From a virus (taxonomy: Duplodnaviria; Heunggongvirae; Uroviricota; Caudoviricetes), in the IMG/VR virus record IMGVR_UViG_2724679237_000005, positions 32,001-96,000 of that record: DNA of 64,000 bases; one strand, written 5' to 3'. The notes beneath the pieces are model-generated. The model ran no database searches and had not been told where the DNA came from. It saw only the letters and a list, made by a program, of their open reading frames with translations. Below are positions 3,957 to 54,204 of the stretch, one piece after another. The translations under genes were made by a program, and so were the position numbers. The number at the start of each line of letters is the position of its first letter. The stretch's first letter is position 1.

Positions 3957-5099
3957 TTACAGGTCTGCAAACTGGCTTAGAGAAGCCTTGTCCACGGTAG
4001 AATCGATCTGACCTACCAGATATGTGCTTTGCTCTGCCTCTTGTGGTGCAATTTGCAGTGTGTCGGTTAACAACCACTTGTTCATCCAGACCAGCGGATC
4101 TGTGGTAACTTCTGGAAATAAAGCCTTCAGGCCAAGACGATTCATAGCCAGATTGGTTCGGTATTTTACATAGGTCTTCAGAATATCCGCGTTTAAACCA
4201 ATCATCGAACCGTCTTTGAAGAGATAGTCTGCCCAGTTCATTTCTTGTTCGGCGACTGATTTCATGGTGTCGTAAATGACGTTTTCTTCATCAGCAGCAA
4301 TCTCTTTCCACAATAAACCTTCGCGACCGGTACGCATGAAGCGGATCATGCGTTCAGTTCCTTCGCAATGCAGAGCTTCATCACGGGCAATAAAGCGCAT
4401 AATTTTGGTGTTACCCTCAAGCAACTTCCGTTCGCCAAAGGCAAACGTACATGCAAAACTTACATAGAAACGGATCGCCTCAAGCGCATTAATGGACACC
4501 AACGTGCGGAAAAGCTGACGGTGCAAAGGGTATGGCTCCCAGCCATATTCATTTACGTACAGACGTTCAAACTCTTTCTCACCTAACGACTGGCGCTCGC
4601 AGGTCATCCCATAAAGCCTGTCATATTCAGCAGAGATACTGATCGCTCGGTTGATGATTTCTTCATCCGTAACAATACCGTCAAAAACAATGCTCGGATC
4701 GTCCACCATGCCACGAATAATGTGGGTGTAGCTGCGGCTATGGATAGTCTCAGAGAAAGACCATGTTTCAACCCACGTTTCCAGTTCAGGAATAGAGATA
4801 AGCGGCAGCAGCGTTGCATTTGGGCTACGTCCCTGAACTGAATCGAGTAACGTTTGATAACGGAGATTGCTCAGAAAAATGTGACGTTCGTGGTCCCGCA
4901 GCTTCGTGTTGAAGTCGATACGATCGCTCGAAATATCAACTTCTTCCGGCCGCCAGAAGAAAGACAATTGACGTTCAATCAACTTTTCAAAATCACGGTA
5001 TTTTTGCTGATCGTAACGTGCCACGTTGACAGATTGTCCGAGGAACATAGGTTCTTTGGTTGCATCATTAGCACCCAAACGGAACGTTGAATATGACAT
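3957..5099 (-). CDS. nrdB: ribonucleotide reductase class Ia small subunit
   Basis: Strong resemblance to enterobacterial NrdB N-terminus ([31 protein letters not shown]); start at ATG 5097-5099 with AAGGA RBS. Confidence 0.9.
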
Positions 5100-31945: not shown

Positions 31946-33208
31946 ATGCCTTTTTTAATTTTCATTATTATACTACTGCTCACCGTGATTTTTTGGGATT
32001 GGGTTGTTTTAAATGGTCAAATTGTTGGAACATTGGCTACAGCATTTGCTTTTATAGCAACAGCATGGAATGCCTACGAAGCGAGAAAAAGTGCAAAAGC
32101 AGCTTTTTCAGCCCTTCAATTAACAACAGAATCATTGTTCGAAATGCGAAAGAGTGCATTTAAACAATGGTTTGATTCCTTATTAAATCAACATGATGAG
32201 CTATGTCTTCTTGCAAAACAAATTATCGATAAACGCAAAGTTAATTTAAACAGCGATGAGTTACATAGACTATATTACCCATTGGTAAAACAGCATGAGG
32301 TAATACAGTATGTGAAGCATATTATTAATATTTTTGAGTATGTGGATAGTTCATTTTATATTGATGGGGAATGTCTAAAGGAAAAAAGAGCGTATGTGTC
32401 ACAATTAATTTTCAAAATCCCACCTCAGATGAAGTTGATCATTGCTATCTTTGGATTAAAAATCGATTATTGTGAACATATTAATTCGGGAAAACTGTGT
32501 TGTTTATTGAATAAATATGATTTTTTCAATGATGAAATATTTTTTGATGATGCTTATTCAGATATGCCTTATCTGGATGCATTCATAAACCTTAGATTCA
32601 ACAAAATATTCAAATCTCGAATGATAAATTATTTTGATAATATCATTAAAAGTTATTATGTTCCATCGGACGTTAAAAGGGACTGGATGTTTCGAAACCC
32701 AAAGCTCGTGCCGTCGGTTCTTATGAATTATAAAACTCCTTGTTCTCCTATAATTAATGATTACTTTGAGAAGTTGCCTTTACATGTAAGAAACTACTTT
32801 GAGGAACTACTTAAAACCGCGAATGATAGAGTTACTCATTTTGACGTTTACATCCCACGCCTTATTGGTTGTTCAATCGTGCAACATTACGAAGATGTGC
32901 CTTCCGAAAAAAACAGGTTAAATGACAGGAATGATGTAATAGCTATGGCTGAAGATTACATCGAGAAAAGAAAATATAATCAACTGGATTACATACTTGA
33001 AGATATATACTTCAAGAGTGACGAAGATATAATCCCTGGCCACCATTTGATTGTGGCATTTGATGACTATGAATTTAAATTATCACTCATTAAGATAAAT
33101 GAGAATAAAGATAGCGATAATCTTTTAAATCGAATTTATACTGAATCCAGTAGCATGGTTAAAGAATATAAGCGCGAAATATTAAAACTGGGCGACTATG
33201 TAAAGTAA
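31946..33208 (+). CDS. membrane-anchored protein of unknown function in AT-rich island (candidate defence or exclusion protein)
   Basis: 420-aa ORF, two N-terminal hydrophobic helices, strongly AT-rich versus surroundings, own terminator. Confidence 0.6.
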   Translation: MPFLIFIIILLLTVIFWDWVVLNGQIVGTLATAFAFIATAWNAYEARKSAKAAFSALQLTTESLFEMRKSAFKQWFDSLLNQHDELCLLAKQIIDKRKVNLNSDELHRLYYPLVKQHEVIQYVKHIINIFEYVDSSFYIDGECLKEKRAYVSQLIFKIPPQMKLIIAIFGLKIDYCEHINSGKLCCLLNKYDFFNDEIFFDDAYSDMPYLDAFINLRFNKIFKSRMINYFDNIIKSYYVPSDVKRDWMFRNPKLVPSVLMNYKTPCSPIINDYFEKLPLHVRNYFEELLKTANDRVTHFDVYIPRLIGCSIVQHYEDVPSEKNRLNDRNDVIAMAEDYIEKRKYNQLDYILEDIYFKSDEDIIPGHHLIVAFDDYEFKLSLIKINENKDSDNLLNRIYTESSSMVKEYKREILKLGDYVK

Positions 33209-43860: not shown

Positions 43861-44628
43861 ATGGACGATTTATCGGTATACGCGAGATCATTGGATAAGG
43901 CTAAATACTATGTTTACTGTCTCTATGATACAGAAGACAAGATGAAAAGACCGTTTTACATAGGAAAAGGCAAATCGACTCGTTGTCTCGATCACATCAA
44001 GTATCCCGATGACTCTCCCAAATCCATGCGGATCAAAGAACTTTTGGCTAATAAAAAATTAGGCATAGATATTCTTCGTCATGGTATGGATGAAACCACA
44101 GCCAAACTTGTTGAGGCGACATGCATCGACCTTATGGGGGTCGGAGAGCTTACGAATAAGGTTCGAGGAAGTGGTTCCATGATGGGCAGAATATCACTGG
44201 ACGCCTACCATCACTTAGTGCTGCAAGAGGAAACTGAAATTGCTCCTGAGCACGCCGGTCTTGCCTTCCTGCTAAACAGCACCTACAAGTCAGGAATGTC
44301 CGCTCTGGCATTATATGAAGCTACGCGTGGCGTATGGGCAAAGGTTCCAAGAGACGAGAATCTCAAATATGCCTACGCTACATATGGTGGGCTGATAATG
44401 GAAGTTTATCAGATTGAATGCTGGGTCAAAGCCGGTTCTCAGCAGTACTTTACAAGGGATATAGCTCTTGGCCCCGACACAAAACGTTATGAATTTGTTG
44501 GCAGAATAGCCGATGAGCATATTAGAAAACTGTATGTAGGCAAATTAATCAAGAAGCCACCAAGCTACGGTAGCCCTTTTGTGAAGGTTGGGATGGTTAG
44601 GACTGAACATAGTGTTAGCGCGGCATAA
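43861..44628 (+). CDS. GIY-YIG domain nuclease
   Basis: N-terminal YYVYCLYD...FYIGKGKSTRCLDH matches GIY-(8-10)-YIG-R spacing; plus strand. Confidence 0.6.
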   Translation: MDDLSVYARSLDKAKYYVYCLYDTEDKMKRPFYIGKGKSTRCLDHIKYPDDSPKSMRIKELLANKKLGIDILRHGMDETTAKLVEATCIDLMGVGELTNKVRGSGSMMGRISLDAYHHLVLQEETEIAPEHAGLAFLLNSTYKSGMSALALYEATRGVWAKVPRDENLKYAYATYGGLIMEVYQIECWVKAGSQQYFTRDIALGPDTKRYEFVGRIADEHIRKLYVGKLIKKPPSYGSPFVKVGMVRTEHSVSAA

Positions 44629-44645
44629 AGCTGACACTGTAGTTA

Positions 44646-44683
44646 TGCATTGGCGCAATGTACGCGCCAATGCATGATTTTTA
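44646..44683 (+). terminator. rho-independent terminator after GIY-YIG gene
   Basis: 12-bp perfect stem atgcattggcgc/gcgccaatgcat, 7-nt loop, T-run. Confidence 0.55.
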
Positions 44684-45040
44684 ACCTTTCTTCATCAACT
44701 CTCGTTTGATTTCATCGGTACGCATCGTGACATCGGCAGCGGTGATCGCCTCATTCAATTTCACGATGTCCTCGATTTCCTGCGGTGACTTCTCTGCCAG
44801 ATGGAAAATGGCTGCTCGAATCACGTCAGAACGAGTGAACTTCTCGAAGCGAGGGATGAACTTCATCATCTCCAGCAGTTCGAAGTATTCGTCCTCCAGT
44901 GACATTGTGCGGCTTTTAATTTTCTCTTTGCCACGAGTCGGGCGTCCCTGTGGTCTGACTGGTTGGCGCAAAGGAGTTGTGTTCTTAGCCGGTGCATCAG
45001 GCTCTTTGCGCTTTGCTAGGTCACCCATTTTCATGGACAT
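44681..45040 (-). CDS. ParG-like partition protein (putative ribbon-helix-helix)
   Basis: small basic protein immediately downstream of parA-like gene, start overlaps its stop. Confidence 0.45.
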   Translation of the reverse strand: MSMKMGDLAKRKEPDAPAKNTTPLRQPVRPQGRPTRGKEKIKSRTMSLEDEYFELLEMMKFIPRFEKFTRSDVIRAAIFHLAEKSPQEIEDIVKLNEAITAADVTMRTDEIKRELMKKG

Positions 45041-45708
45041 TATTCTTCTTCCTCCAGACTCAACAGATAATCTACAAATTCTTCAAACTCGGCTTCCGCC
45101 TTTTTGTCGCGCTCGCTACCGGTCATTTCAAAGATAGAACGACCAGACTCTTCCGCATCATCATAGACGTTGCGGTTATATAGATTGACTGGCGCAGACT
45201 CGATTCCAAACGTCTCAACAATCTCTTTAGCCGCCAGAATGCGAGACACTTGTGATGGCAAAGCCGGGCACTGGTTCATGACCGCGCGGACCTTCACTTT
45301 ATCGTTTACATTGCGAACATTGTCGATAATAGGATCGATGTCACGTAAAGATTTCAAATCACGACGCTTAGGACGCAGCGGGATAATGATAACGTCAGCC
45401 ATCAGCATCGCTTGTCGCTGAATTTCGGAGTCAAAGCCACCAGCATCTACCACTACATACTCAGCTCTACCCTGAAGCGATTTTAGGTGCTTAATGATGT
45501 CATCCTGAACGTATGCAAAAGGAATCAGCTCAAGGTCTTCGTTCTGTCGACGGTCTTCACACCAGCTCGTTGTCGTGCGCTGAATATCTATATCGGTGAT
45601 ATAAACCTTCTTCTTCTTTTTGACTTTCAGGCAAACGGCAATTTGCTGGGCAACGGTGGATTTGCCAGGCCCGCCCTTTGTGCCGCCAACCACAAAGATC
45701 TTGGTCAT
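45040..45708 (-). CDS. parA: ParA/ParF-type partition ATPase
   Basis: deviant Walker A GGTKGGPGKST, short type Ib form. Confidence 0.8.
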   Translation of the reverse strand: MTKIFVVGGTKGGPGKSTVAQQIAVCLKVKKKKKVYITDIDIQRTTTSWCEDRRQNEDLELIPFAYVQDDIIKHLKSLQGRAEYVVVDAGGFDSEIQRQAMLMADVIIIPLRPKRRDLKSLRDIDPIIDNVRNVNDKVKVRAVMNQCPALPSQVSRILAAKEIVETFGIESAPVNLYNRNVYDDAEESGRSIFEMTGSERDKKAEAEFEEFVDYLLSLEEEE

Positions 45709-45743
45709 TGGAGAGTTCCCTTTGCGTATATAATTATCGTCTG

Positions 45744-45762
45744 AAACAACTTGTTTTCTTAT
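45744..45762 (-). promoter_or_regulatory. same element, site 5 (upstream of parA)
   Basis: AAACAACTTGTTTTCTTAT. Confidence 0.5.
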
Positions 45763-45854
45763 ATGTGATATAGCCTAAATGCCTACGGCTGTGGTGTAAA
45801 GGTTAAATGGTAGGTGCTGCCTTAGAATTTTTAGGCGAGAATCAATGGCTGTTA

Positions 45855-45888
45855 ACAAAAAAGGCGACCAAAGTCGCCTGATTTTTAA
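45855..45888 (-). terminator. rho-independent terminator
   Basis: stem aggcgac/gtcgcct flanked by A-run and T-run. Confidence 0.5.
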
Positions 45889-46637
45889 TCTTTTAGGTAT
45901 AAACCTACTGGAGTTCTTGTTTTGCGGGAGATGATAAGTACGATAAATTTCTGAACGTTAACTTGCACTTTGTTTGGGAGCCAAGAGCTTAACTCTGCAT
46001 CAAGCAACAATCCTCTGTTCCACGGCAAAAATCCGGTTTCTTTCCCCATCCCGTACTCGCCTAACACATCCTCGAACGTTTCTGTTTTGGCATTGTATAT
46101 ACGCACATCGCCGGTTCGCATGAGAGGCCCTGCCCAGATCTTAGCACCAGGAATGGTTTGTGTATCGTCGCAGACTAAATGCTCATACCAATGAAGAAGA
46201 AAGAGATAGGTACGGTGACACAATCCTCGCTGACGACGCTCTCTGACAGTTTCGACACCAGCTACCTGGTAACATTCGATCTCATTACCGTCTTCAACAA
46301 AACTATATTCACGCAGAGCTATCCTACCAGCGATCGTATTTTTGTTTTCGTCCAGAAGCCCGGACTGGAGCACCTCTTTGATAATCTCTTCTTCAGGGGC
46401 ATCTTCATCCGCTCGATCTAAGATGAATTCGCTCAGGTCGCCTTGGTCGCGCGCACCTACACGTTCCATAGAGACATACAGGCAAATGTCATCTTCTGGT
46501 TCAATGATTTCAATTTCTGAGATTTTATAGAGGGAGGCTTCATTGATAAGAAAGCCAAAACGAACAACACGAGTCTCCCCTTTATGAGGAAACTCGCTTA
46601 GATCTTTTGAATATGCGCTATCTAGTGTAGGAGCCAT
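45885..46637 (-). CDS. hypothetical protein
   Basis: 250-aa ORF. Confidence 0.45.
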   Translation of the reverse strand: MAPTLDSAYSKDLSEFPHKGETRVVRFGFLINEASLYKISEIEIIEPEDDICLYVSMERVGARDQGDLSEFILDRADEDAPEEEIIKEVLQSGLLDENKNTIAGRIALREYSFVEDGNEIECYQVAGVETVRERRQRGLCHRTYLFLLHWYEHLVCDDTQTIPGAKIWAGPLMRTGDVRIYNAKTETFEDVLGEYGMGKETGFLPWNRGLLLDAELSSWLPNKVQVNVQKFIVLIISRKTRTPVGLYLKD

Positions 46638-47005
46638 TTTGTAGCAGAATCATCAGCCTTAACCGTGCTGACAATGCTACCATGATTGCGTAAGAAGCGG
46701 CGAATAGAATGTTCAATAACCTCCGAAAAAGCCTCGATAAAACGAGACAGCTCAGGGTACTGTTTAGCTGGCTTGACTACAAAACGAACACGACCATTCA
46801 GGTAAATTGCTTCAGCTAATGGCTTCACGCTTGCACCAGCGCGCTCAACATCGTCTTTGAAGGTAACGATGAAGCGTGAGTCTTCCGGTTCAATAGCGTC
46901 ATTATTGAGCTTACGTACTTCAAGCTTGTGCTGATTCAGCACATGAGTCTCGATAATACTCGTGCAATCGCGAATAGTTTGTATAGAACGTTTCTCGTTC
47001 AGCAT
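46622..47005 (-). CDS. hypothetical protein
   Basis: 127-aa ORF with AAGGTGGA RBS. Confidence 0.45.
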   Translation of the reverse strand: MLNEKRSIQTIRDCTSIIETHVLNQHKLEVRKLNNDAIEPEDSRFIVTFKDDVERAGASVKPLAEAIYLNGRVRFVVKPAKQYPELSRFIEAFSEVIEHSIRRFLRNHGSIVSTVKADDSATKWLLH

Positions 47006-47229
47006 GTGTCCACCTTAGCCGTTAACACAAGTGTCATTGCGGCACCCCTCTCGGGGTTGAAGGCTACGAGGATGCGTAGCCTGTATGTGCCCACTTACGT
47101 GGATGCCTAATAAATCTACATCAAATTACTAAATGATTCAACATGAGCTTGAGTGAACAGGCGTGTATATGAGTGAAGATGCCATCTTTAGGATAAAAGG
47201 TAAACTGAGACCACTCATCAATCATCGAC

Positions 47230-47457
47230 TCAGTTCAGGTGCCCCCACTCACACAGCCTTTCACCTATCGTATTGTGGATAAGCAACTGTCGCTCCGTTT
47301 CCTCAGTCATAAAATCCTCTCTACTCACATAGATAGGATTTGCAGCATCGCAGAATAGCACGCCTGGAGCCTGCGTCTTAATCACGCACCCATTTATCAA
47401 ACAGCTCGCGATGAACACCAGAGGCATCTTTTTGCCGCACTTCATTAACCGTTTCAT
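47230..47457 (-). CDS. o-spanin (Rz1-like lipoprotein) in alternative frame overlapping Rz
   Basis: signal peptide with lipobox LINGC; start codon uncertain. Confidence 0.45.
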   Translation of the reverse strand: MKRLMKCGKKMPLVFIASCLINGCVIKTQAPGVLFCDAANPIYVSREDFMTEETERQLLIHNTIGERLCEWGHLN

Positions 47458-47629
47458 TTTTGACATCCACTGTGCTTTGAAGTCGTTTTCTGTCTTCCTG
47501 TTTTGCCTTCTCTTCCATTGCTCGTCGCGCCGCATTTCCGCCCATCGTGTAAGCGCCGACCAGAACGAAAAGAACGGCAGCCAGCGTAATCAAAGCAACT
47601 TTTAGCTTTGTCATCAGGCTGCCTAGCAT
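47378..47629 (-). CDS. i-spanin (Rz-like)
   Basis: N-terminal TM helix followed by charged coiled-coil region; AAAGGGA RBS. Confidence 0.55.
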   Translation of the reverse strand: MLGSLMTKLKVALITLAAVLFVLVGAYTMGGNAARRAMEEKAKQEDRKRLQSTVDVKNETVNEVRQKDASGVHRELFDKWVRD

Positions 47630-47630
47630 A

Positions 47631-48323
47631 TTAGACCATCCCTTTCTGGTGTCTTCTTACCTGCGACCAGGCGATAAATCCAGCCACAACAATAGTGGCA
47701 ATACCGAAGATGATGCGTACTGTATCCCCGCTAGAGATATGACCTTGTGCTTTATCCATAGCAGCGGAAACCTGCGGCATAACATCGGCCAGCTGCGCCA
47801 GACCAATACCTGCTGTAACAGTTGCGCCTGCTGTTTCTTTAGTTACAGGAACAGCCTTCACGGTTTTCACCGGCTTAACGACGCCAGCTCGACGCAGACC
47901 TTCCTCAATAACTTCTGCCGCATACCAGGTGTTCAGCGTTTTTAGCGGACCTCGCCCATTCTCATGGCGAATGATTGCCTCAACCAAAGGTCGAAGAATG
48001 TCGTAATCATGCAGATCGATAATCATGTCTGCGGTTACACCAACGGCTTTAGACACCTCATTAATGTAGGCGTCAGTATTGTTTTCATTCGGCGGTGCCC
48101 AGCGTTCAATAACTTCACGAATGGTATCGATACTTGAGCCGTCTTTTGCGCGACGTTTGTCGTGGTAGGTAATTAGAGTCACCGCCAGCGCACGAATCCC
48201 CCAAACAGGGTCTTTAAACGTGCAAAAGCGCGGTTCGTCTGGATTCGCAACCAGACCTTGCCACGGTGATCCTTTATCAAGATTACCGGGGTTATTATTA
48301 CGAATGCCTCTCGGAGTCTTCAT
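47631..48323 (-). CDS. putative endolysin (peptidoglycan hydrolase) with C-terminal hydrophobic segment
   Basis: position between holin-like gene and spanins; IRNNNPGNL motif; enzymatic family not confirmed. Confidence 0.4.
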   Translation of the reverse strand: MKTPRGIRNNNPGNLDKGSPWQGLVANPDEPRFCTFKDPVWGIRALAVTLITYHDKRRAKDGSSIDTIREVIERWAPPNENNTDAYINEVSKAVGVTADMIIDLHDYDILRPLVEAIIRHENGRGPLKTLNTWYAAEVIEEGLRRAGVVKPVKTVKAVPVTKETAGATVTAGIGLAQLADVMPQVSAAMDKAQGHISSGDTVRIIFGIATIVVAGFIAWSQVRRHQKGMV

Positions 48324-48336
48324 CCTTGATCTCCTG

Positions 48337-48660
48337 TTATTGCAGTCCATTTTTTACGCCATACGCGGCTAACCCCAAAAGCAGTGCAGTAATAATGAAC
48401 GACGTTATTTTAGAAACAATGCCGCCAAAGAACCCACTGGAGATGGAATCTAACCGGTTAAGGAGCTTGTCCAGGTTGGAGTGTTGAATACTATGTTGCG
48501 CTGGGGTCATATCACCAAAGTAGGTTTTCAGCTGATCATTGACCTCCTGGCCAATTTCTTCACGTAGCTCTTTGCCTAATTTGCCAACAACCTCCCGAGC
48601 AACGATCGCGGCAATACGCTCAACTTGCTCTGTTGTAACGCCCGCCATCTCGTTCGACAT
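48337..48660 (-). CDS. holin-like small membrane protein
   Basis: single C-terminal TM helix; first gene of lysis cluster; GGAGG RBS. Confidence 0.35.
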   Translation of the reverse strand: MSNEMAGVTTEQVERIAAIVAREVVGKLGKELREEIGQEVNDQLKTYFGDMTPAQHSIQHSNLDKLLNRLDSISSGFFGGIVSKITSFIITALLLGLAAYGVKNGLQ

Positions 48661-48738
48661 GTTTTCCTCCATGAAAAGTCAAATCGGGATGGCGGATTTA
48701 TATCACATTTCACCCTTTTGTTGTAGGTGTGTACTTAC

Positions 48739-48975
48739 CTACCATTCAGCATTGCAACGGACTGATGAGAAAGCACCTACTCCTACCCATCGCCAGTTAT
48801 AGATGCTACCCGCTTTGTATAAGGTATAGTCGTTCACTTTTTTAACAGCATATATGGGTATGACTGTCTCCTGTCCACCAATGATAGCCTCACCATAACA
48901 TATAGGTGTCGGCAATTTCTGGCAGCCAGTAAGAGAGAGAACAACAGCTATTGTTAGAAATAATCTTTTCATCAT
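48739..48975 (-). CDS. lipoprotein (candidate superinfection-exclusion factor)
   Basis: signal peptide with lipobox LTGC; sits between tail-fiber accessory genes and lysis genes. Confidence 0.5.
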   Translation of the reverse strand: MMKRLFLTIAVVLSLTGCQKLPTPICYGEAIIGGQETVIPIYAVKKVNDYTLYKAGSIYNWRWVGVGAFSSVRCNAEW

Positions 48976-48982
48976 TTACTCA

Positions 48983-49591
48983 TCAGTTATACAGATTTCT
49001 ATTTATTACCGGTACTCTGCCATTTACGCTAAAACTATGGCCGCCATTAAGTTGGTTTACGAATATAGAGCTAACAGTATTTCCATATGCCGCATATCCA
49101 TAAACCATTGTCATGGCCCCGCCCGGTACTGGAACCGCGAACACATTTGCATATGTTGGGATTATCGCTGGCGGGTAATCAAAAACATGCCCTCCAGAAC
49201 TGTTCCACTCCGTATTATTAAGAAAGGTAAATGAAAGTGGGATATTTGCCGTATTATAGATCTCCTCTCCTCGCGCATTGAAAAAACTCATGCCCCAAGT
49301 TTCTTTTTTGGCTATACCTTTCGAAAATACGTATATCGTGGCACTAGAGTCGCTACCCTGACCTCCGAAACTGTAAATCACCTGGTTGTTACGCACTATT
49401 CTGTTGGCTATTAATGAAACAGCTTTCGAATAGGCAACAAAAATCATCGGTGAACGATCTGGAGATATTTGGGTGTTAAACTCTGTCCCGCCGGACAAAG
49501 AAACAACCTGCTTTCTCTGAAAAACGATAGGAGACAAAGAAGGAGACATCCAGACCTTCCCGTCAGATCGATATATCTTGCTTCCGTACAT
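48983..49591 (-). CDS. hypothetical protein downstream of tail fiber
   Basis: 202-aa ORF. Confidence 0.45.
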   Translation of the reverse strand: MYGSKIYRSDGKVWMSPSLSPIVFQRKQVVSLSGGTEFNTQISPDRSPMIFVAYSKAVSLIANRIVRNNQVIYSFGGQGSDSSATIYVFSKGIAKKETWGMSFFNARGEEIYNTANIPLSFTFLNNTEWNSSGGHVFDYPPAIIPTYANVFAVPVPGGAMTMVYGYAAYGNTVSSIFVNQLNGGHSFSVNGRVPVINRNLYN

Positions 49592-49845
49592 TATTTTTGA
49601 AAAACCAATATGTTTAAATTACCACTAGCTCCAGACCACGAAATGGTATTTCCAGAAACCGTAAGACTTGTGTATTTTCCATTGGTTACGTCCATTATGT
49701 AATAGTCGATTCCCAATCCCGCCTCAACCTCATATGTTCTACTTCCTGAACCAGAGGGAGTAAAATAATCGAGATAATAAACAGGGGCCAACGCATCGAC
49801 CATCTCCTGTCTTGATGGCGACCAAACCTGTGCACCATAGCTCAT
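49591..49845 (-). CDS. hypothetical protein downstream of tail fiber
   Basis: 84-aa ORF with AAGGA RBS. Confidence 0.45.
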   Translation of the reverse strand: MSYGAQVWSPSRQEMVDALAPVYYLDYFTPSGSGSRTYEVEAGLGIDYYIMDVTNGKYTSLTVSGNTISWSGASGNLNILVFQK

Positions 49846-49905
49846 AAATATATCCTTATACTTTTAAGCAGGGGCTGGTTTAGTTCCAGCCCCGATTGAA
49901 GTTGT

Positions 49906-52900
49906 TTATTCTTTAGGTGAATTTAACTTCGTTTCAAGCTCCTCAACCCTTTTGGTCAATTGCTGAATATGATGAATGAGTGGTACAACCAAACGCTCAT
50001 ACATCACTCCTTCAGCGACCATACCATTTGAGGAAATATCTCCTGGAGAATCATTATTTGTTGGTTCACGCCAATGGACATATTGCGGGGCAATCTCACC
50101 AACCTCTTCAGCAATAAGGCCGTAATACCCCCAATCCTTTCGGTCACCTCGACAAATTGAACGATACCAAACAGGTCTTAATGACAAAAGTTCATCAGCA
50201 TATCGATCTTGTAATGTTTCAATATCCTTTTTATAGCGCCTTGAAGATGTTGAACGCCAAACTGTATTGATACCTGGGTTTGGATCAATGTACATATTGG
50301 CACCGCTAGTAGTTGTGCCAATATCCCATATAGCAAACCCTCCACTACCGCCTGATTTGACAACCAGTGTTTCAGCAATAATATCCAGGTTGCCACTATA
50401 GCCTGTCAGTGATGATCTGCTTGCATAGGAACTTAGAAGGTTTGTTACCTCTGTTTTCGTATAAGCATTAAGGTTAGCCGCAGTCAAAGTAATATCGGCA
50501 GAGCCATCAAACGCCACACCAGCAATTTTCCTTGCTGTCTGCAATTTTGTGGCTGTTGCGGCATTACCAGTAGTATTCTGATTACCGGTTGTATTCACAC
50601 CAGGGATTGAATCCTTAGCGGTATATACCTGCGCCCACGCTGACCATGCCGCATCAGTGGTATCTCTTCTGGAGCGAATGAAAACCGGCGCATGTGCACC
50701 GCTCGTACCACTCCAGCCAATAAGCAACTCGCCCTCACCAGCAGCACTCGCACCTTTCATGTGCAATACGTTGCCATACGTGGTCGGGTAGCTATTGTTG
50801 TACGCCTCGTACATTTGAATGCCAGCAGTACCTTGAGTAGAACCGCTTAAAGCCGTAACTCGACCACGAGAAACCAATGTATTAATATTGATATCACCTG
50901 AACCATCAAACTTAACACCATTGATGTTTCTCGCTGTTTGCAACTTCGTAGCTGTTGAAGCATTGCCATTCAAGCTACCATTTACGCCACCAGTAACATT
51001 TAGTCCATTACCAATAGACACAACACCGCTGCTATTATTAATTATAATCGGTCGCAAACTGTTCCATGAACCTAACGTATCTCCTGATGCTGTTAGCATG
51101 AAATATGTGCTGCCGCCGTCATTACGGATAAAGAACCCGTAGTTACCGTAAGCAATGCGGAAACCATTTGCATATTTTGAAACGATCTCACCAGAAGACG
51201 TTAACCCTCCAGATAATGTGCCACCTGAAAGCGGTAATGCTCCTACATCAGAAGCTGTTGGTTTGTTTCTAGTGTTATAAGAACGACGCCAGCCTGGTGC
51301 ATAATCACTTCCATTGTACACATAAATAAATTCCGCATTGTTAACACCACCATGACCCGATGTTGTTGTCGTTGTAACACGAATAGTGTAGTGGCTTGTT
51401 GCCTTATTACTAAACACCTCAATCACGGAACCAGATAGATCGATCCTACCGCAACCAGTGTCGTCTATATAATTATTGTTGGCGTAAGTCCATGAGCACC
51501 GTGCGATCCAATGTTTGTTTGTAAATGCCCCCTGATTATTTAGCCAAGTTATAAATTGAGCAGTCGTAAATGCCGTTCCGTTACCACTATTTAACCATCC
51601 AGCGGCAGCGGTTGGCGCGTTTATATCAGCCGGCTGAGGCATAAATCCAGTCGTGTAAACCTGCTCCCAACCACTTTCAAAACCATAGCCATCTCTTGAG
51701 GAACGGTAGAACAGACCACCATTTTTATAGTGAGCTTTAATTTGAAGCGTACGGCAACTACCTACACCGGTATAAAAGTTGGCAAGAATATAACTGTCGC
51801 CTGTTCTAGTTACATTGTAAGCACCAGATTCAGCATTCCACGGCACGCCACCATCAGCATCCGCATATGACCCTGTTGCCCTTCTTGCGAAAGCGGCAAC
51901 ATGCGCAGCGGTTAAAGTGATATCAGTAGAACCATCAAATGGAACACCGGATATTTTTCTTGCAGTCTGAAGTTTTGTAGCAGTTGCAGCATTACCAGTG
52001 GTGTTCTGATTACCCGTAGTGTTTACACCTGGAAGGTTGATATTTGCAGAACCGTCGAAACCAACTCCACCGATAGATCTTGCCGTCTGCAATTTCGTTG
52101 CTGTACTTGCATTACCATTTAATGTTCCGGTGATCCCACCAGTAACAGACAACGGACCTGAAACTGTTCCTCCGGTTGTTGGCAGTGCTCCAATATCTAA
52201 CGGCGTCGGTTTCTGATGTGTGCTATACATCGTATAAACAACACCATCGGTAACGCTGGAAGGCTTACTCGCTGAATATGTTGGCGATGTATAAATAGAA
52301 ACTGACGCATTTGCAGTACAATCCCAATGGATATTTACACTCGTCGCATAATTGCCAATTTCAACGTAAATATCATATGTATCGCCGGATGTGTTGATCC
52401 AGGCGAAATTCGTTAATCCGACAGCTGTACGCTTCCACAAAGCACCTGTAATCCCTTTGGGGTTTCCATTGCCTGCTCGTAGAACCAGTTCTGAAATGCC
52501 TGCCTGATGTGGGGAGCCGACGTTGTAACCAGCGCCACCAATCAATGCGATGTAAACGATGGAACTCGCTTGTGGCATTGTAACAGTAGCCAGTTTGAAC
52601 CACCCGGCCCCGCCAGAGAAAGACATCGTTATTGAATTTAAAGTACCAATATCTTTCGGCGTTAATGTGATATCCGCAGTCAGTGCTTTCCCGTTAATTT
52701 TTCGGTTAGATGGCACCCTGCTGTTCGCATTGTCATTGACTACTTTAACTGCTTTTGGCGTTGCGGCCAGCGATTCACTGGTGCTGTCGACAGCACTGCT
52801 AAGTTTCACAACACCTTTAGTTGTAAGGCTTGCGTCTTCCATCGCAACTGCACCGGCAATCTCTTCAGCACGATCAGCAGCAGCTTCCGCACGGGTCGCA

Positions 52901-54204
52901 GCGGATTCAGCAGCAGTTTTGCTCTGAGATGCTGCCGTCGCACTGCCTGCCGCCTCTGTTGCTTTCGTGGATGCCGTCGTGGCGCTGCCCTTCGCTGCTG
53001 ACGCCTGTCTGGTCGCCTCATCTTTTGAAGCAGACGCAGATGATGCCGATGACGCTGCCGAACTGGCGGACGATGCGGCTGCCGTTTTTGAGGATTCTGC
53101 ACGGGTTTCCGACGCTTTCGCGTTCGTTTCGGATGTCTTCGCTGCGGAAGCAGACCTCGCTGCTGCGCTGGCCTGTTCAGTGGCTTCGCCAGCCTTCGTT
53201 GTGGCTGTTGAAGCAGACGATGCGGCACTTTCTGCCGATTTTCCGGCGGCGGTGGCACTGGCTGAGGCCTGCCCGGCACTTGTTGACGCGGCACTGGCAG
53301 ACGACGCAGCCGCTGTTTTTGAGCCTGCCGCAGCCGAGGCGCTCTGTCCCGCTGCCGTTTCAGAAGACCTGGCGTTCGTCTCGGACGTTTTTGCCGCCTT
53401 CGCGGAATTTCCTGCCGCCGTTGCCGAGGAAGCGGCATTACTGGCGCTCGAGGCTGCGCTCGTTTCTGATGATTTCGCTGCCTCTTTTGAGGCCGCCGCA
53501 TCCCGGGCTGAGGTGGCAGCTTCTGACGCCTTCGTGGTCGCGGTGGATGCAGAAGTGGCTGCAGATTTTTGTGACGCTGCAGCATTCGTTTCAGACGTTT
53601 TCGCGGCACCGGCACTGGTGGCCGCCGCGCTTTTTGAGGACTCTGCAGCGGATGCACTTTGAGACGCTTGAGAGGCTTTTTCTCCAGCGGTATTGGCGCT
53701 TTCTGCTGCTGCGGCAGCACTGGCCGCCGCCTCACGAGCTTTGTCGCCAGCAGCATCAATCGCGTCAGTGTTATTTTTATACCACTCAACGTTTTCGTTG
53801 TGCTCGTTGACGATCTGCATTAGCGGCTTAACGGTCACTTCTGTACCGTCTTCACGCTCGATTGTCACCTCATCCAGAGCAGTCAACCAACTGCGCATGG
53901 ACTTGGAATCAGCCGACATACGCGACATTAGTGCTGTAAAGCGCGCGCTAAACTGTGTTAAGTCGCCTTCATAGGTCGTAATGATTCGGCACGGAACTTC
54001 AGACTGAGTTTCGCCGGTATAAGGTTCTGAGAGAACAATGTTCGTATCACTGGTTACGCGCTTGATCTCATACAGCTTATTGTCGGGGCCAATGACGATC
54101 ATCCCCGGCAACACACCATTAGCTGTTACGTTCCAGGCTGTCCCTGCCCCAACCAGAGTATTGCTGCCCTGTGTAAATGTGATAGTACCTTCCCTGTACC
54201 ACAT
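49906..54204 (-). CDS. side tail fiber with C-terminal intramolecular-chaperone-like domain
   Basis: repeated NGNASTATKLQTAR-I-GV-FDGS fiber repeats; long Ala/Ser/Thr-rich region; C-terminal region resembles self-cleaving chaperone domains. Confidence 0.75.
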   Translation of the reverse strand: MWYREGTITFTQGSNTLVGAGTAWNVTANGVLPGMIVIGPDNKLYEIKRVTSDTNIVLSEPYTGETQSEVPCRIITTYEGDLTQFSARFTALMSRMSADSKSMRSWLTALDEVTIEREDGTEVTVKPLMQIVNEHNENVEWYKNNTDAIDAAGDKAREAAASAAAAAESANTAGEKASQASQSASAAESSKSAAATSAGAAKTSETNAAASQKSAATSASTATTKASEAATSARDAAASKEAAKSSETSAASSASNAASSATAAGNSAKAAKTSETNARSSETAAGQSASAAAGSKTAAASSASAASTSAGQASASATAAGKSAESAASSASTATTKAGEATEQASAAARSASAAKTSETNAKASETRAESSKTAAASSASSAASSASSASASKDEATRQASAAKGSATTASTKATEAAGSATAASQSKTAAESAATRAEAAADRAEEIAGAVAMEDASLTTKGVVKLSSAVDSTSESLAATPKAVKVVNDNANSRVPSNRKINGKALTADITLTPKDIGTLNSITMSFSGGAGWFKLATVTMPQASSIVYIALIGGAGYNVGSPHQAGISELVLRAGNGNPKGITGALWKRTAVGLTNFAWINTSGDTYDIYVEIGNYATSVNIHWDCTANASVSIYTSPTYSASKPSSVTDGVVYTMYSTHQKPTPLDIGALPTTGGTVSGPLSVTGGITGTLNGNASTATKLQTARSIGGVGFDGSANINLPGVNTTGNQNTTGNAATATKLQTARKISGVPFDGSTDITLTAAHVAAFARRATGSYADADGGVPWNAESGAYNVTRTGDSYILANFYTGVGSCRTLQIKAHYKNGGLFYRSSRDGYGFESGWEQVYTTGFMPQPADINAPTAAAGWLNSGNGTAFTTAQFITWLNNQGAFTNKHWIARCSWTYANNNYIDDTGCGRIDLSGSVIEVFSNKATSHYTIRVTTTTTSGHGGVNNAEFIYVYNGSDYAPGWRRSYNTRNKPTASDVGALPLSGGTLSGGLTSSGEIVSKYANGFRIAYGNYGFFIRNDGGSTYFMLTASGDTLGSWNSLRPIIINNSSGVVSIGNGLNVTGGVNGSLNGNASTATKLQTARNINGVKFDGSGDININTLVSRGRVTALSGSTQGTAGIQMYEAYNNSYPTTYGNVLHMKGASAAGEGELLIGWSGTSGAHAPVFIRSRRDTTDAAWSAWAQVYTAKDSIPGVNTTGNQNTTGNAATATKLQTARKIAGVAFDGSADITLTAANLNAYTKTEVTNLLSSYASRSSLTGYSGNLDIIAETLVVKSGGSGGFAIWDIGTTTSGANMYIDPNPGINTVWRSTSSRRYKKDIETLQDRYADELLSLRPVWYRSICRGDRKDWGYYGLIAEEVGEIAPQYVHWREPTNNDSPGDISSNGMVAEGVMYERLVVPLIHHIQQLTKRVEELETKLNSPKE
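52760..53770. repeat. low-complexity Ala/Ser/Thr-rich coding repeats inside tail fiber gene
   Basis: GC-rich repetitive codons leave all frames open (source of spurious overlapping ORFs). Confidence 0.6.

Follow-up and report, generated by a model that had tools for sequence, protein, structure and literature searches.

The window analysed here (64,000 nucleotides, positions 32,001 to 96,000 of the Caudoviricetes record IMGVR_UViG_2724679237_000005 in IMG/VR) carries on its minus strand, between positions 47230 and 48975, a cluster of five genes for host lysis and superinfection exclusion. From family matches, gene order and structure prediction, the cluster very probably encodes an endolysin of the C-terminal anchor (CTA) type, a 107-amino-acid protein of PHROG 5093, a spanin pair and the exclusion lipoprotein Cor. 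The lysis module and Cor are largely known, the Salmonella phage SSU5 counterparts being already annotated and this type of endolysin having been characterised in related phages; of the components, the PHROG 5093 protein alone belongs to no described family.

Many E. coli plasmids of 100-113 kb are 99% identical to window positions 44000-50000 over the full length, and positions 47250-48741 share 82-94% nucleotide identity with SSU5 and with Escherichia phages Cyrano, PhiR41_1 and CMS-2020a. The counterpart genes are annotated as Cor superinfection exclusion protein, putative holin, endolysin and Rz-like spanins in SSU5 (SSU5_025-030), and as Holin, Endolysin, Rz spanin and Rz1 spanin in Cyrano (CYRAN_22-25), while a ParA partition gene lies just downstream of the lysis genes (45040-45708). 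These identities, the common annotations and the nearby ParA gene identify the window as part of an E. coli SSU5-like phage-plasmid, and the genes under study as its late lysis module. Read along the minus strand, the genes run from the tail fibre through two small accessory genes to cor, and then to the PHROG 5093 gene, endolysin, i-spanin and o-spanin. Each of the five lysis and Cor proteins matches a phage family with an E-value of 1e-24 to 1e-89, and chance matches are therefore excluded. An initial annotation made from the letters alone had called a lysis cassette here, a call that agrees with both the family matches and the SSU5 and Cyrano annotations; all five genes lie on the minus strand where it had placed them, and only its description of Rz1 as embedded in Rz has to be replaced, by an overlapped arrangement described below.

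The endolysin gene (47631..48323 including the stop codon, minus strand) encodes a 230-amino-acid protein of the Enc34/M4Lys type. Its start is the ATG at 48323, 8 nucleotides after an AGGAG and 13 nucleotides after the stop of the upstream gene; the longest open reading frame (ORF), of 239 codons, is rejected by the Shine-Dalgarno position and the N-termini of the homologues. The protein matches phrog_873 (E=9e-89) and, in a phmmer search of PDB sequences, the catalytic domain of the Hafnia phage Enc34 endolysin (7q47, E=1.5e-54). An AlphaFold2 model built on 30 homologues has a pLDDT of mostly 77-96 across residues 21-150 and resembles 7q47 (Foldseek E=4e-16, target-normalised TM-score 0.82), with 59% identity across the structural match. 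Together with the invariant residues, the model and the Foldseek match delimit an enzymatically active glycosidase domain of the PHA02564 family at residues ~4-150 (47874..48314, minus strand). W75, Y86 and E121 (230-residue numbering), invariant in the 30 homologues, map to Enc34 W79, Y95 and E131 with a numbering offset of one residue; in the Enc34 enzyme, Glu131 is catalytic, and Trp79 and Tyr95 position the substrate (PMC8943055).

By tblastn, the protein is ~55% identical over 95% of its length to endolysins of Chi-like Salmonella phages, Enc34, Serratia phage JS26, and Aeromonas and Proteus phages, a coverage that extends the homology to the C-terminal membrane domain. A database search returned 1932 relatives at E <=1e-10; among the best 120, almost every one is a full-length protein of ~230 amino acids. 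The relatives occur in phage-plasmids of Escherichia, Salmonella, Klebsiella and Cronobacter, and also in Xenorhabdus, Photorhabdus, Providencia, Pasteurella and others; judged by these matches, the C-terminal-anchor endolysin family is spread much more widely than the Chi-like clade of the Enc34 paper. The homologues Enc34 ORF39 and M4Lys are measurably muralytic (PMC8943055, PMC7143992), and by homology the 230-amino-acid protein, at first only presumed to be an endolysin, is very probably one.

The PHA02564 domain was first labelled 'virion protein', and is also found inside T7-like internal virion/ejection proteins, a tape-measure family and Gp29 of PDB 9vvp, an entry titled 'Core proteins of the bacteriophage E1004'. 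A virion-associated peptidoglycan hydrolase acting at infection, and not an endolysin, would fit these occurrences but is very improbable here, where the domain forms a stand-alone 230-amino-acid protein with a membrane anchor. The gene sits between a gene in the holin position and the spanin genes, translationally coupled to both, the closest full-length homologues (Enc34 ORF39 and M4Lys) act as lysis proteins, and no other endolysin candidate is seen in this region of the element.

The catalytic domain is followed by a linker with a near-invariant VPVTKET and a weakly hydrophobic helix 1 rich in Gly, Ala, Ser and Thr (residues ~151-198, 47730..47873, minus strand), placed by conservation and by hydropathy (KD19). 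In the linker, P159, T161 and E163 are invariant in the 30 homologues, and V160, K162 and T164 at least 90% conserved. The motif itself (47835-47855, minus strand, residues ~157-163), lying between the catalytic and membrane domains, is near-invariant among homologues at 55-89% identity and is conserved more than much of the enzyme. Across the 30 sequences, helix 1 has a mean KD19 maximum of 1.22 and a Gly/Ala/Ser/Thr fraction of 0.52, and the AlphaFold2 confidence for linker and helix 1 is low (pLDDT <50). The single strongly hydrophobic segment is the C-terminal transmembrane helix (residues ~203-222), followed by the basic tail RRHQKGMV (47634..47717 for helix and tail, minus strand). Its KD19 maximum is 2.07 (residues 213-231 of the 239-codon ORF), against a family mean of 2.23, and net positive charge follows the helix in 29/30 homologues. 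The C-terminal membrane region aligns with the membrane domains of the Enc34 and SPN19 proteins. No N-terminal hydrophobic segment is present in any of the 30 homologues (maximum KD15 <=0.12). A signal-anchor-release (SAR) endolysin is thereby rejected, the N-terminus MKTPRGIRNNNPGN being hydrophilic and the first 45 residues lacking a hydrophobic segment.

Hydropathy across the homologues thus confirms the initial placing of the hydrophobic segment at the C-terminus and not the N-terminus. The topology is real and, as had been said, atypical relative to textbook lambda, but it is of a kind already described and is not a novelty: C-terminally anchored endolysins have been reported for Chi-like phages and phage AP1 since 2019-2022 (PMC8943055, PMC7143992, PMC8879335). 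The catalytic domain of Enc34 ORF39 is muralytic when isolated, and toxicity comes from the full-length protein only (PMC8943055). M4Lys of phage BSPM4, which has N-acetylglucosaminidase activity, lyses E. coli alone in an azide-insensitive manner, with no holin needed; lysis requires its C-terminal membrane domain, which by itself is bacteriostatic, and co-expression of the upstream gene slightly delays lysis, for which the authors allow an expression artefact (PMC7143992). LysAP of phage AP1 has a C-terminal membrane helix with cationic residues, the helix being required for membrane localisation and lysis, and a separate upstream holin, HolAP, enhances lysis by LysAP (PMC8879335). A new endolysin class was proposed on this topology in the announcement of phage Siskin. 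According to a 2026 preprint, 'C-terminal anchor (CTA) endolysins' were named a third major class by Cernooka et al. 2025, and their activation mechanism is described there as still open.

The two genes following the endolysin gene encode the spanins. The i-spanin (Rz-like, 83 amino acids, 47378..47629, minus strand) matches phrog_1026 'Rz-like spanin' (E=6e-25) and has an N-terminal membrane helix at residues ~8-30 (KD19 2.38 at residues 11-29), followed by a charged periplasmic part. Its gene starts at 47629, one base beyond the endolysin stop, and ends at 47378. In a single pairwise comparison it shows weak similarity to Enc34 ORF40 that includes a C-terminal KW(V/M)R motif (E=2e-4). The o-spanin (Rz1-like, 47230..47445, minus strand) matches phrog_1275 (E=2e-25) and was aligned with its SSU5, Enc34 and SPN19 relatives. 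Its probable start is MKCGKK at 47445, with alternative ATGs at 47457 and 47466. The signal peptide, MKCGKKMPLVFIASCLING preceding the Cys and ending in LING, leaves a mature protein of ~52 amino acids with two more conserved Cys. The lipobox L-I-N-G-C (47386..47400, minus strand), read from the sequence, aligns with VSGC of the relatives, and in the alignment with SSU5, Enc34 and SPN19 the lipobox Gly-Cys and the two later Cys are invariant. Asn at lipobox position -2 is unusual relative to the consensus. LINGC is nevertheless the right lipobox, because its Cys is the one kept in Enc34 and Chi-like o-spanins; IASC was considered as the true lipobox and rejected, its Cys not being conserved outside SSU5-like elements.

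Rz1 overlaps Rz by 68-89 nucleotides, depending on the start, and runs 148 nucleotides past the Rz stop. The initial annotation had read an Rz with an alternative-frame Rz1 carrying the lipobox LINGC; the pair and the lipobox stand, while the lambda-like embedding does not, since 148 nucleotides of Rz1 lie beyond the Rz stop. The spanin genes of Enc34 are overlapped too (PMC8943055), and the SSU5 o-spanin has been placed in the 'Chi' family (Kongari et al. 2018). By alignment and gene layout, Rz/Rz1 is a two-component overlapped i-spanin/o-spanin pair with an o-spanin of the Chi family. The similarities of endolysin, i-spanin and o-spanin together make this a module common to Chi-like phages and SSU5-like phage-plasmids. 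The 'Rz1 spanin' of Cyrano (CYRAN_25, positions 3993-4112 of our locus L001) is a 39-amino-acid ORF beginning beyond the Rz stop, with neither signal peptide nor lipobox; this is probably a wrong call, the real o-spanin starting inside Rz as in the window.

The 107-amino-acid protein encoded directly upstream of the endolysin (48337..48660 including the stop codon, minus strand) matches phrog_5093 (E=8e-69), which is labelled 'unknown function'. Its start is the ATG at 48660, 5 nucleotides after a GGAGGA, and homologues begin MSNE; the longest ORF, of 111 codons, is rejected by the Shine-Dalgarno position and the homologue N-termini. The protein is annotated as 'putative holin' in SSU5 and 'Holin' in Cyrano. 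A single C-terminal transmembrane helix (residues ~79-102, 48355..48426, minus strand, KD19 maximum 2.02) is followed by the five-residue tail KNGLQ. The soluble part contains the conserved motif YFGDMTPAQHSIQHS (residues 47-61, 48478..48522, minus strand). In the AlphaFold2 model the protein forms two long helices, residues 10-48 and residues 53-103, and the latter extends from the His motif into the membrane.

Close relatives of the 107-amino-acid protein are found in SSU5-like elements only, and a profile search of 1.84 billion representatives retrieved 56 distant PHROG 5093 relatives of 94-141 amino acids. All 26 members examined are built alike, with a helical, hydrophilic domain at the N-terminus, one membrane helix at the C-terminus and a tail of 4-18 residues, and G49, H56 and H60 are invariant in these sequences, down to 23% identity, within YFGDMTPxQHxIQH. 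No known domain was matched by the His motif. In the relatives P0151-P0199, the H-x3-H lies on a predicted helix, with a near-invariant Asp71 just before the membrane helix, and by its conservation this region could be a metal- or partner-binding site.

The initial annotation had called this a holin-like protein with one C-terminal transmembrane segment after a soluble domain. That topology stands; the holin identity derives from gene position, and no holin family was matched. The protein fits a generic description of a holin as a small membrane protein encoded beside the endolysin, its gene ending 13 nucleotides before the endolysin ATG. It has no holin family membership and no highly charged hydrophilic C-terminal domain, the 4-18-residue tail carrying a charge of ~+1. 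Searches of Pfam, NCBIfam and the function-labelled PHROGs gave no match, nor did the 26 members against Pfam, and neither alignment nor BLASTP detects homology to the Chi/Enc34 holin. That 'holin' of the Chi type, Enc34 ORF38 (positions 1151-1495 of locus L003), itself matches phrog_7686 (E=2e-48), which is labelled 'Rz-like spanin', an annotation conflict. A literature search found no published experiment on any PHROG 5093 member.

Gene neighbourhoods were inspected for ten distant PHROG 5093 relatives, of which nine were informative. In all nine the PHROG 5093 gene leads a lysis cassette, which makes it a genuine conserved component of such cassettes. Two loci (L009 and L018) have the PHROG 5093 gene, then a C-terminally anchored Enc34-type endolysin, then an i-spanin. 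The next gene encodes a Peptidase_M15_3 endolysin in 5/9 contexts and an Amidase_2 endolysin in 1/9, and in another (1/9) a phrog_8226 holin gene stands between the PHROG 5093 gene and that of a transglycosylase-like endolysin. The soluble endolysins of these seven cassettes carry no signal sequence. Another small membrane protein occurs in 7/7 cassettes with soluble endolysins and in 0/4 with anchored endolysins (the window, SSU5, L009 and L018). The pattern suggests that PHROG 5093 proteins cooperate with another membrane-active element, and the endolysin anchor could be that element here.

Four of the metagenomic cassettes led by a PHROG 5093 relative encode, after the endolysin, proteins of 72-91 amino acids (L006 4791-5066, L013 3905-4123, L015 3839-4093 and L016 3800-4057) with two hydrophobic segments and the motif RPY.T..FN..W..DY..GP.N..WFGE. 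These have no Pfam match and at most one weak PHROG match, and are likely an undescribed holin family.

For the lysis mechanism we propose, by analogy and with somewhat less than even confidence, that the endolysin would accumulate tethered to the inner membrane via its C-terminal helix, with the basic tail on the cytoplasmic side, where the catalytic domain most likely also remains; Sec-dependent export of that domain is not expected, because the anchor is C-terminal. The endolysin membrane domain may supply at least part of a holin-like membrane lesion, a role suggested by the M4Lys and LysAP membrane domains, which are needed for lysis and membrane-toxic. The 107-amino-acid protein would be a tail-anchored partner, its N-terminal helical domain cytoplasmic and its C-terminal helix in the membrane, that helps to open the membrane or sets the time of opening. 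The endolysin would then degrade the peptidoglycan and the Rz/Rz1 complex would remove the outer membrane. A broader and rather unlikely extension is that PHROG 5093 constitutes a new class of lysis proteins, tail-anchored and bearing an invariant H-x3-H in the cytoplasmic helical domain, always paired either with a separate small holin of two transmembrane helices or, in SSU5-like phage-plasmids, with the membrane domain of the endolysin. If that were true, SSU5-type lysis would be a two-part holin system with one half fused to the enzyme, offering a handle on how C-terminally anchored endolysins reach the cell wall.

Several observations weigh against this proposal. If the basic tail of a single helix is cytoplasmic, the positive-inside rule would place the catalytic domain outside, and helix 1 is too weakly hydrophobic, and too poorly modelled, for a confident second span. 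The charge around the PHROG 5093 helix is compatible with either orientation. The contrast between four and seven cassettes comes from few and phylogenetically non-independent loci, and homology of the endolysin C-terminal membrane domain to the small two-helix proteins of the relatives, tried with hhalign, is rejected (probability 0.1%). Finally, the behaviour of the M4Lys partner is not transferable, because the Chi-type 'holin' is not homologous to PHROG 5093.

The gene position itself also accommodates a different division of labour, in which the 107-amino-acid protein is a canonical holin of new topology, with one membrane helix at the C-terminus and a large cytoplasmic N-terminal domain, that makes lethal holes, and the endolysin helix merely tethers or restrains the enzyme until the hole forms. 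In every context the PHROG 5093 gene lies immediately before the endolysin gene, the classical place for a holin, and is translationally coupled to it; the soluble endolysins that follow its relatives, having no secretion signal, need a holin that makes large holes; the SSU5-type cassette encodes no other small membrane protein; and the boost given by HolAP in phage AP1 is a precedent for a separate holin acting with an anchored endolysin. We regard this as possible but doubtful, given that no known holin family is matched, that the typical charged C-terminal domain is lacking, that another holin-like membrane protein (one of them matching phrog_8226) accompanies each of the seven soluble endolysins, and that M4Lys lyses without any holin. 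The invariant G49, H56 and H60 in the soluble domain suggest instead binding or regulation.

The 107-amino-acid protein has also been read here as an antiholin-like timer, in line with its conserved soluble domain and invariant His: it would bind the endolysin membrane domain (elsewhere the separate two-helix holin) and delay the lesion, and the endolysin C-terminal domain would be the hole-former, making the enzyme effectively an endolysin-holin fusion. The autonomous lysis by M4Lys, its bacteriostatic membrane domain and the slight delay caused by the upstream gene are in line with such an arrangement, as are the constant co-occurrence of PHROG 5093 with a second membrane-active element and the layout of the endolysin C-terminus, which with its weak Gly/Ala/Ser/Thr-rich helix, strong helix and basic tail resembles that of a class II holin or pinholin. 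It is nonetheless rather improbable: the M4Lys delay was obtained with a non-homologous upstream protein and may be the artefact its authors allow, small lesions of the pinholin type would be too small for a folded 17-kDa domain, and the endolysin membrane domain has no sequence similarity to any holin compared.

Upstream of the lysis genes lies cor (48739..48975, minus strand), encoding a 78-amino-acid phage exclusion lipoprotein with the signal peptide MMKRLFLTIAVVLSLTG preceding the Cys and a lipobox ending LTG-C. It scores 80.6 bits against the NCBIfam equivalog NF047972 'phage exclusion lipoprotein Cor' (cut-off 31), matches phrog_1119 (E=9e-31), and shares 42% of its residues with phi80 Cor, 47% with mEp/HK106 Cor and 59% with SSU5 Cor. 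The lipoprotein had at first been described as positioned like receptor-blocking exclusion lipoproteins, which agrees with its membership of the Cor family and its location between the tail-fibre and lysis genes. Cor of phi80, N15 and mEp167 reportedly blocks FhuA-dependent phage adsorption (Arguijo-Hernandez et al. 2018, Hernandez-Sanchez et al. 2008), and by analogy the window Cor, as an outer-membrane lipoprotein, may shield a receptor (FhuA in the cases characterised) from superinfecting phages. The tail-tip C-terminus, compared for hints of the receptor, points to none, with only ~30% identity to a large number of J proteins, N15 gene 21 among them.

The cor stop codon marks the precise limit of nucleotide similarity to SSU5 and Cyrano, and the gene is missing from Cyrano, which places Cor in a mosaic tail-fibre/host-range module and not in the lysis cassette. 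This module (48739-54204, minus strand) comprises cor, a phrog_425 gene (48983-49591), a phrog_557 gene (49591-49845) and a tail-fibre gene; in Cyrano the holin gene directly follows the tail fibre. An independent moron with its own promoter and terminator was considered for cor and rejected, as such sites are no more frequent than expected by chance and none lies beside cor. The 1432-amino-acid tail fibre (49906-54204, minus strand) has a long, repetitive N-terminal half, rich in Ala, Ser and Thr, with repeated 'NGNASTATKLQTAR' units, and a chaperone-like C-terminal end; G+C is 0.535 at 52-54 kb, against ~0.45 around it. On the other side of the lysis genes, two genes matching phrog_2594 and phrog_3307 (45885-47005, minus strand) lie between Rz1 and parA in a variable accessory slot, since Cyrano has a KacT-type toxin-antitoxin pair there.

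Most copies of the lysis and cor genes in phage-plasmids of E. coli, Klebsiella, Salmonella and Cronobacter still carry the label 'hypothetical protein', and can now be named with confidence. SSU5-like elements provide a second, independent partner for a C-terminally anchored endolysin, with a membrane layout opposite to that of the Chi-type holin, and comparison of the SSU5 and Chi types could help to explain how anchored endolysins cross or breach the inner membrane. SSU5-like phage-plasmids are also common carriers of resistance genes, which lends some applied interest to their lysis and exclusion functions.

Among known systems, the lysis cassettes of SSU5 and Cyrano have the same genes in the same order, at the nucleotide identity given above; SSU5 differs in its Cor, only 59% identical to that of the window, and Cyrano in having neither cor nor the two small genes that precede it. 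The Cor proteins of phi80, N15, HK022 and the mEp phages resemble the window Cor in being encoded, like this 78-amino-acid lipoprotein above the equivalog cut-off, downstream of tail-fibre genes, whereas the window sequence is divergent.

Enc34 ORF39, M4Lys and the Chi-like endolysins share with the window endolysin the PHA02564 domain, the conserved Glu, Trp and Tyr, the linker, weakly hydrophobic helix, strong C-terminal membrane helix and basic tail, and the lack of an N-terminal signal; an overlapped Rz/Rz1 pair with an o-spanin of the same Chi family likewise follows the endolysin. These phages are ~60-kb virulent siphoviruses, in contrast to the 100-kb phage-plasmid described here; their endolysins are only ~55% identical overall, and their upstream 'holin' is non-homologous, with an N-terminal membrane helix where the PHROG 5093 protein has a C-terminal one, in mirror image. 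With LysAP/HolAP of Acidovorax phage AP1 the likeness is functional only, consisting of an anchored endolysin and a separate upstream partner. SAR endolysin/pinholin systems (P1 Lyz, phage 21 R21/S21) likewise tether the endolysin to the membrane and make its release or activation depend on a membrane event, and the C-terminal two-helix layout of the window endolysin resembles a class II holin; in SAR endolysins, however, the anchor is N-terminal and not C-terminal as here, and lysis by the related M4Lys is insensitive to azide.

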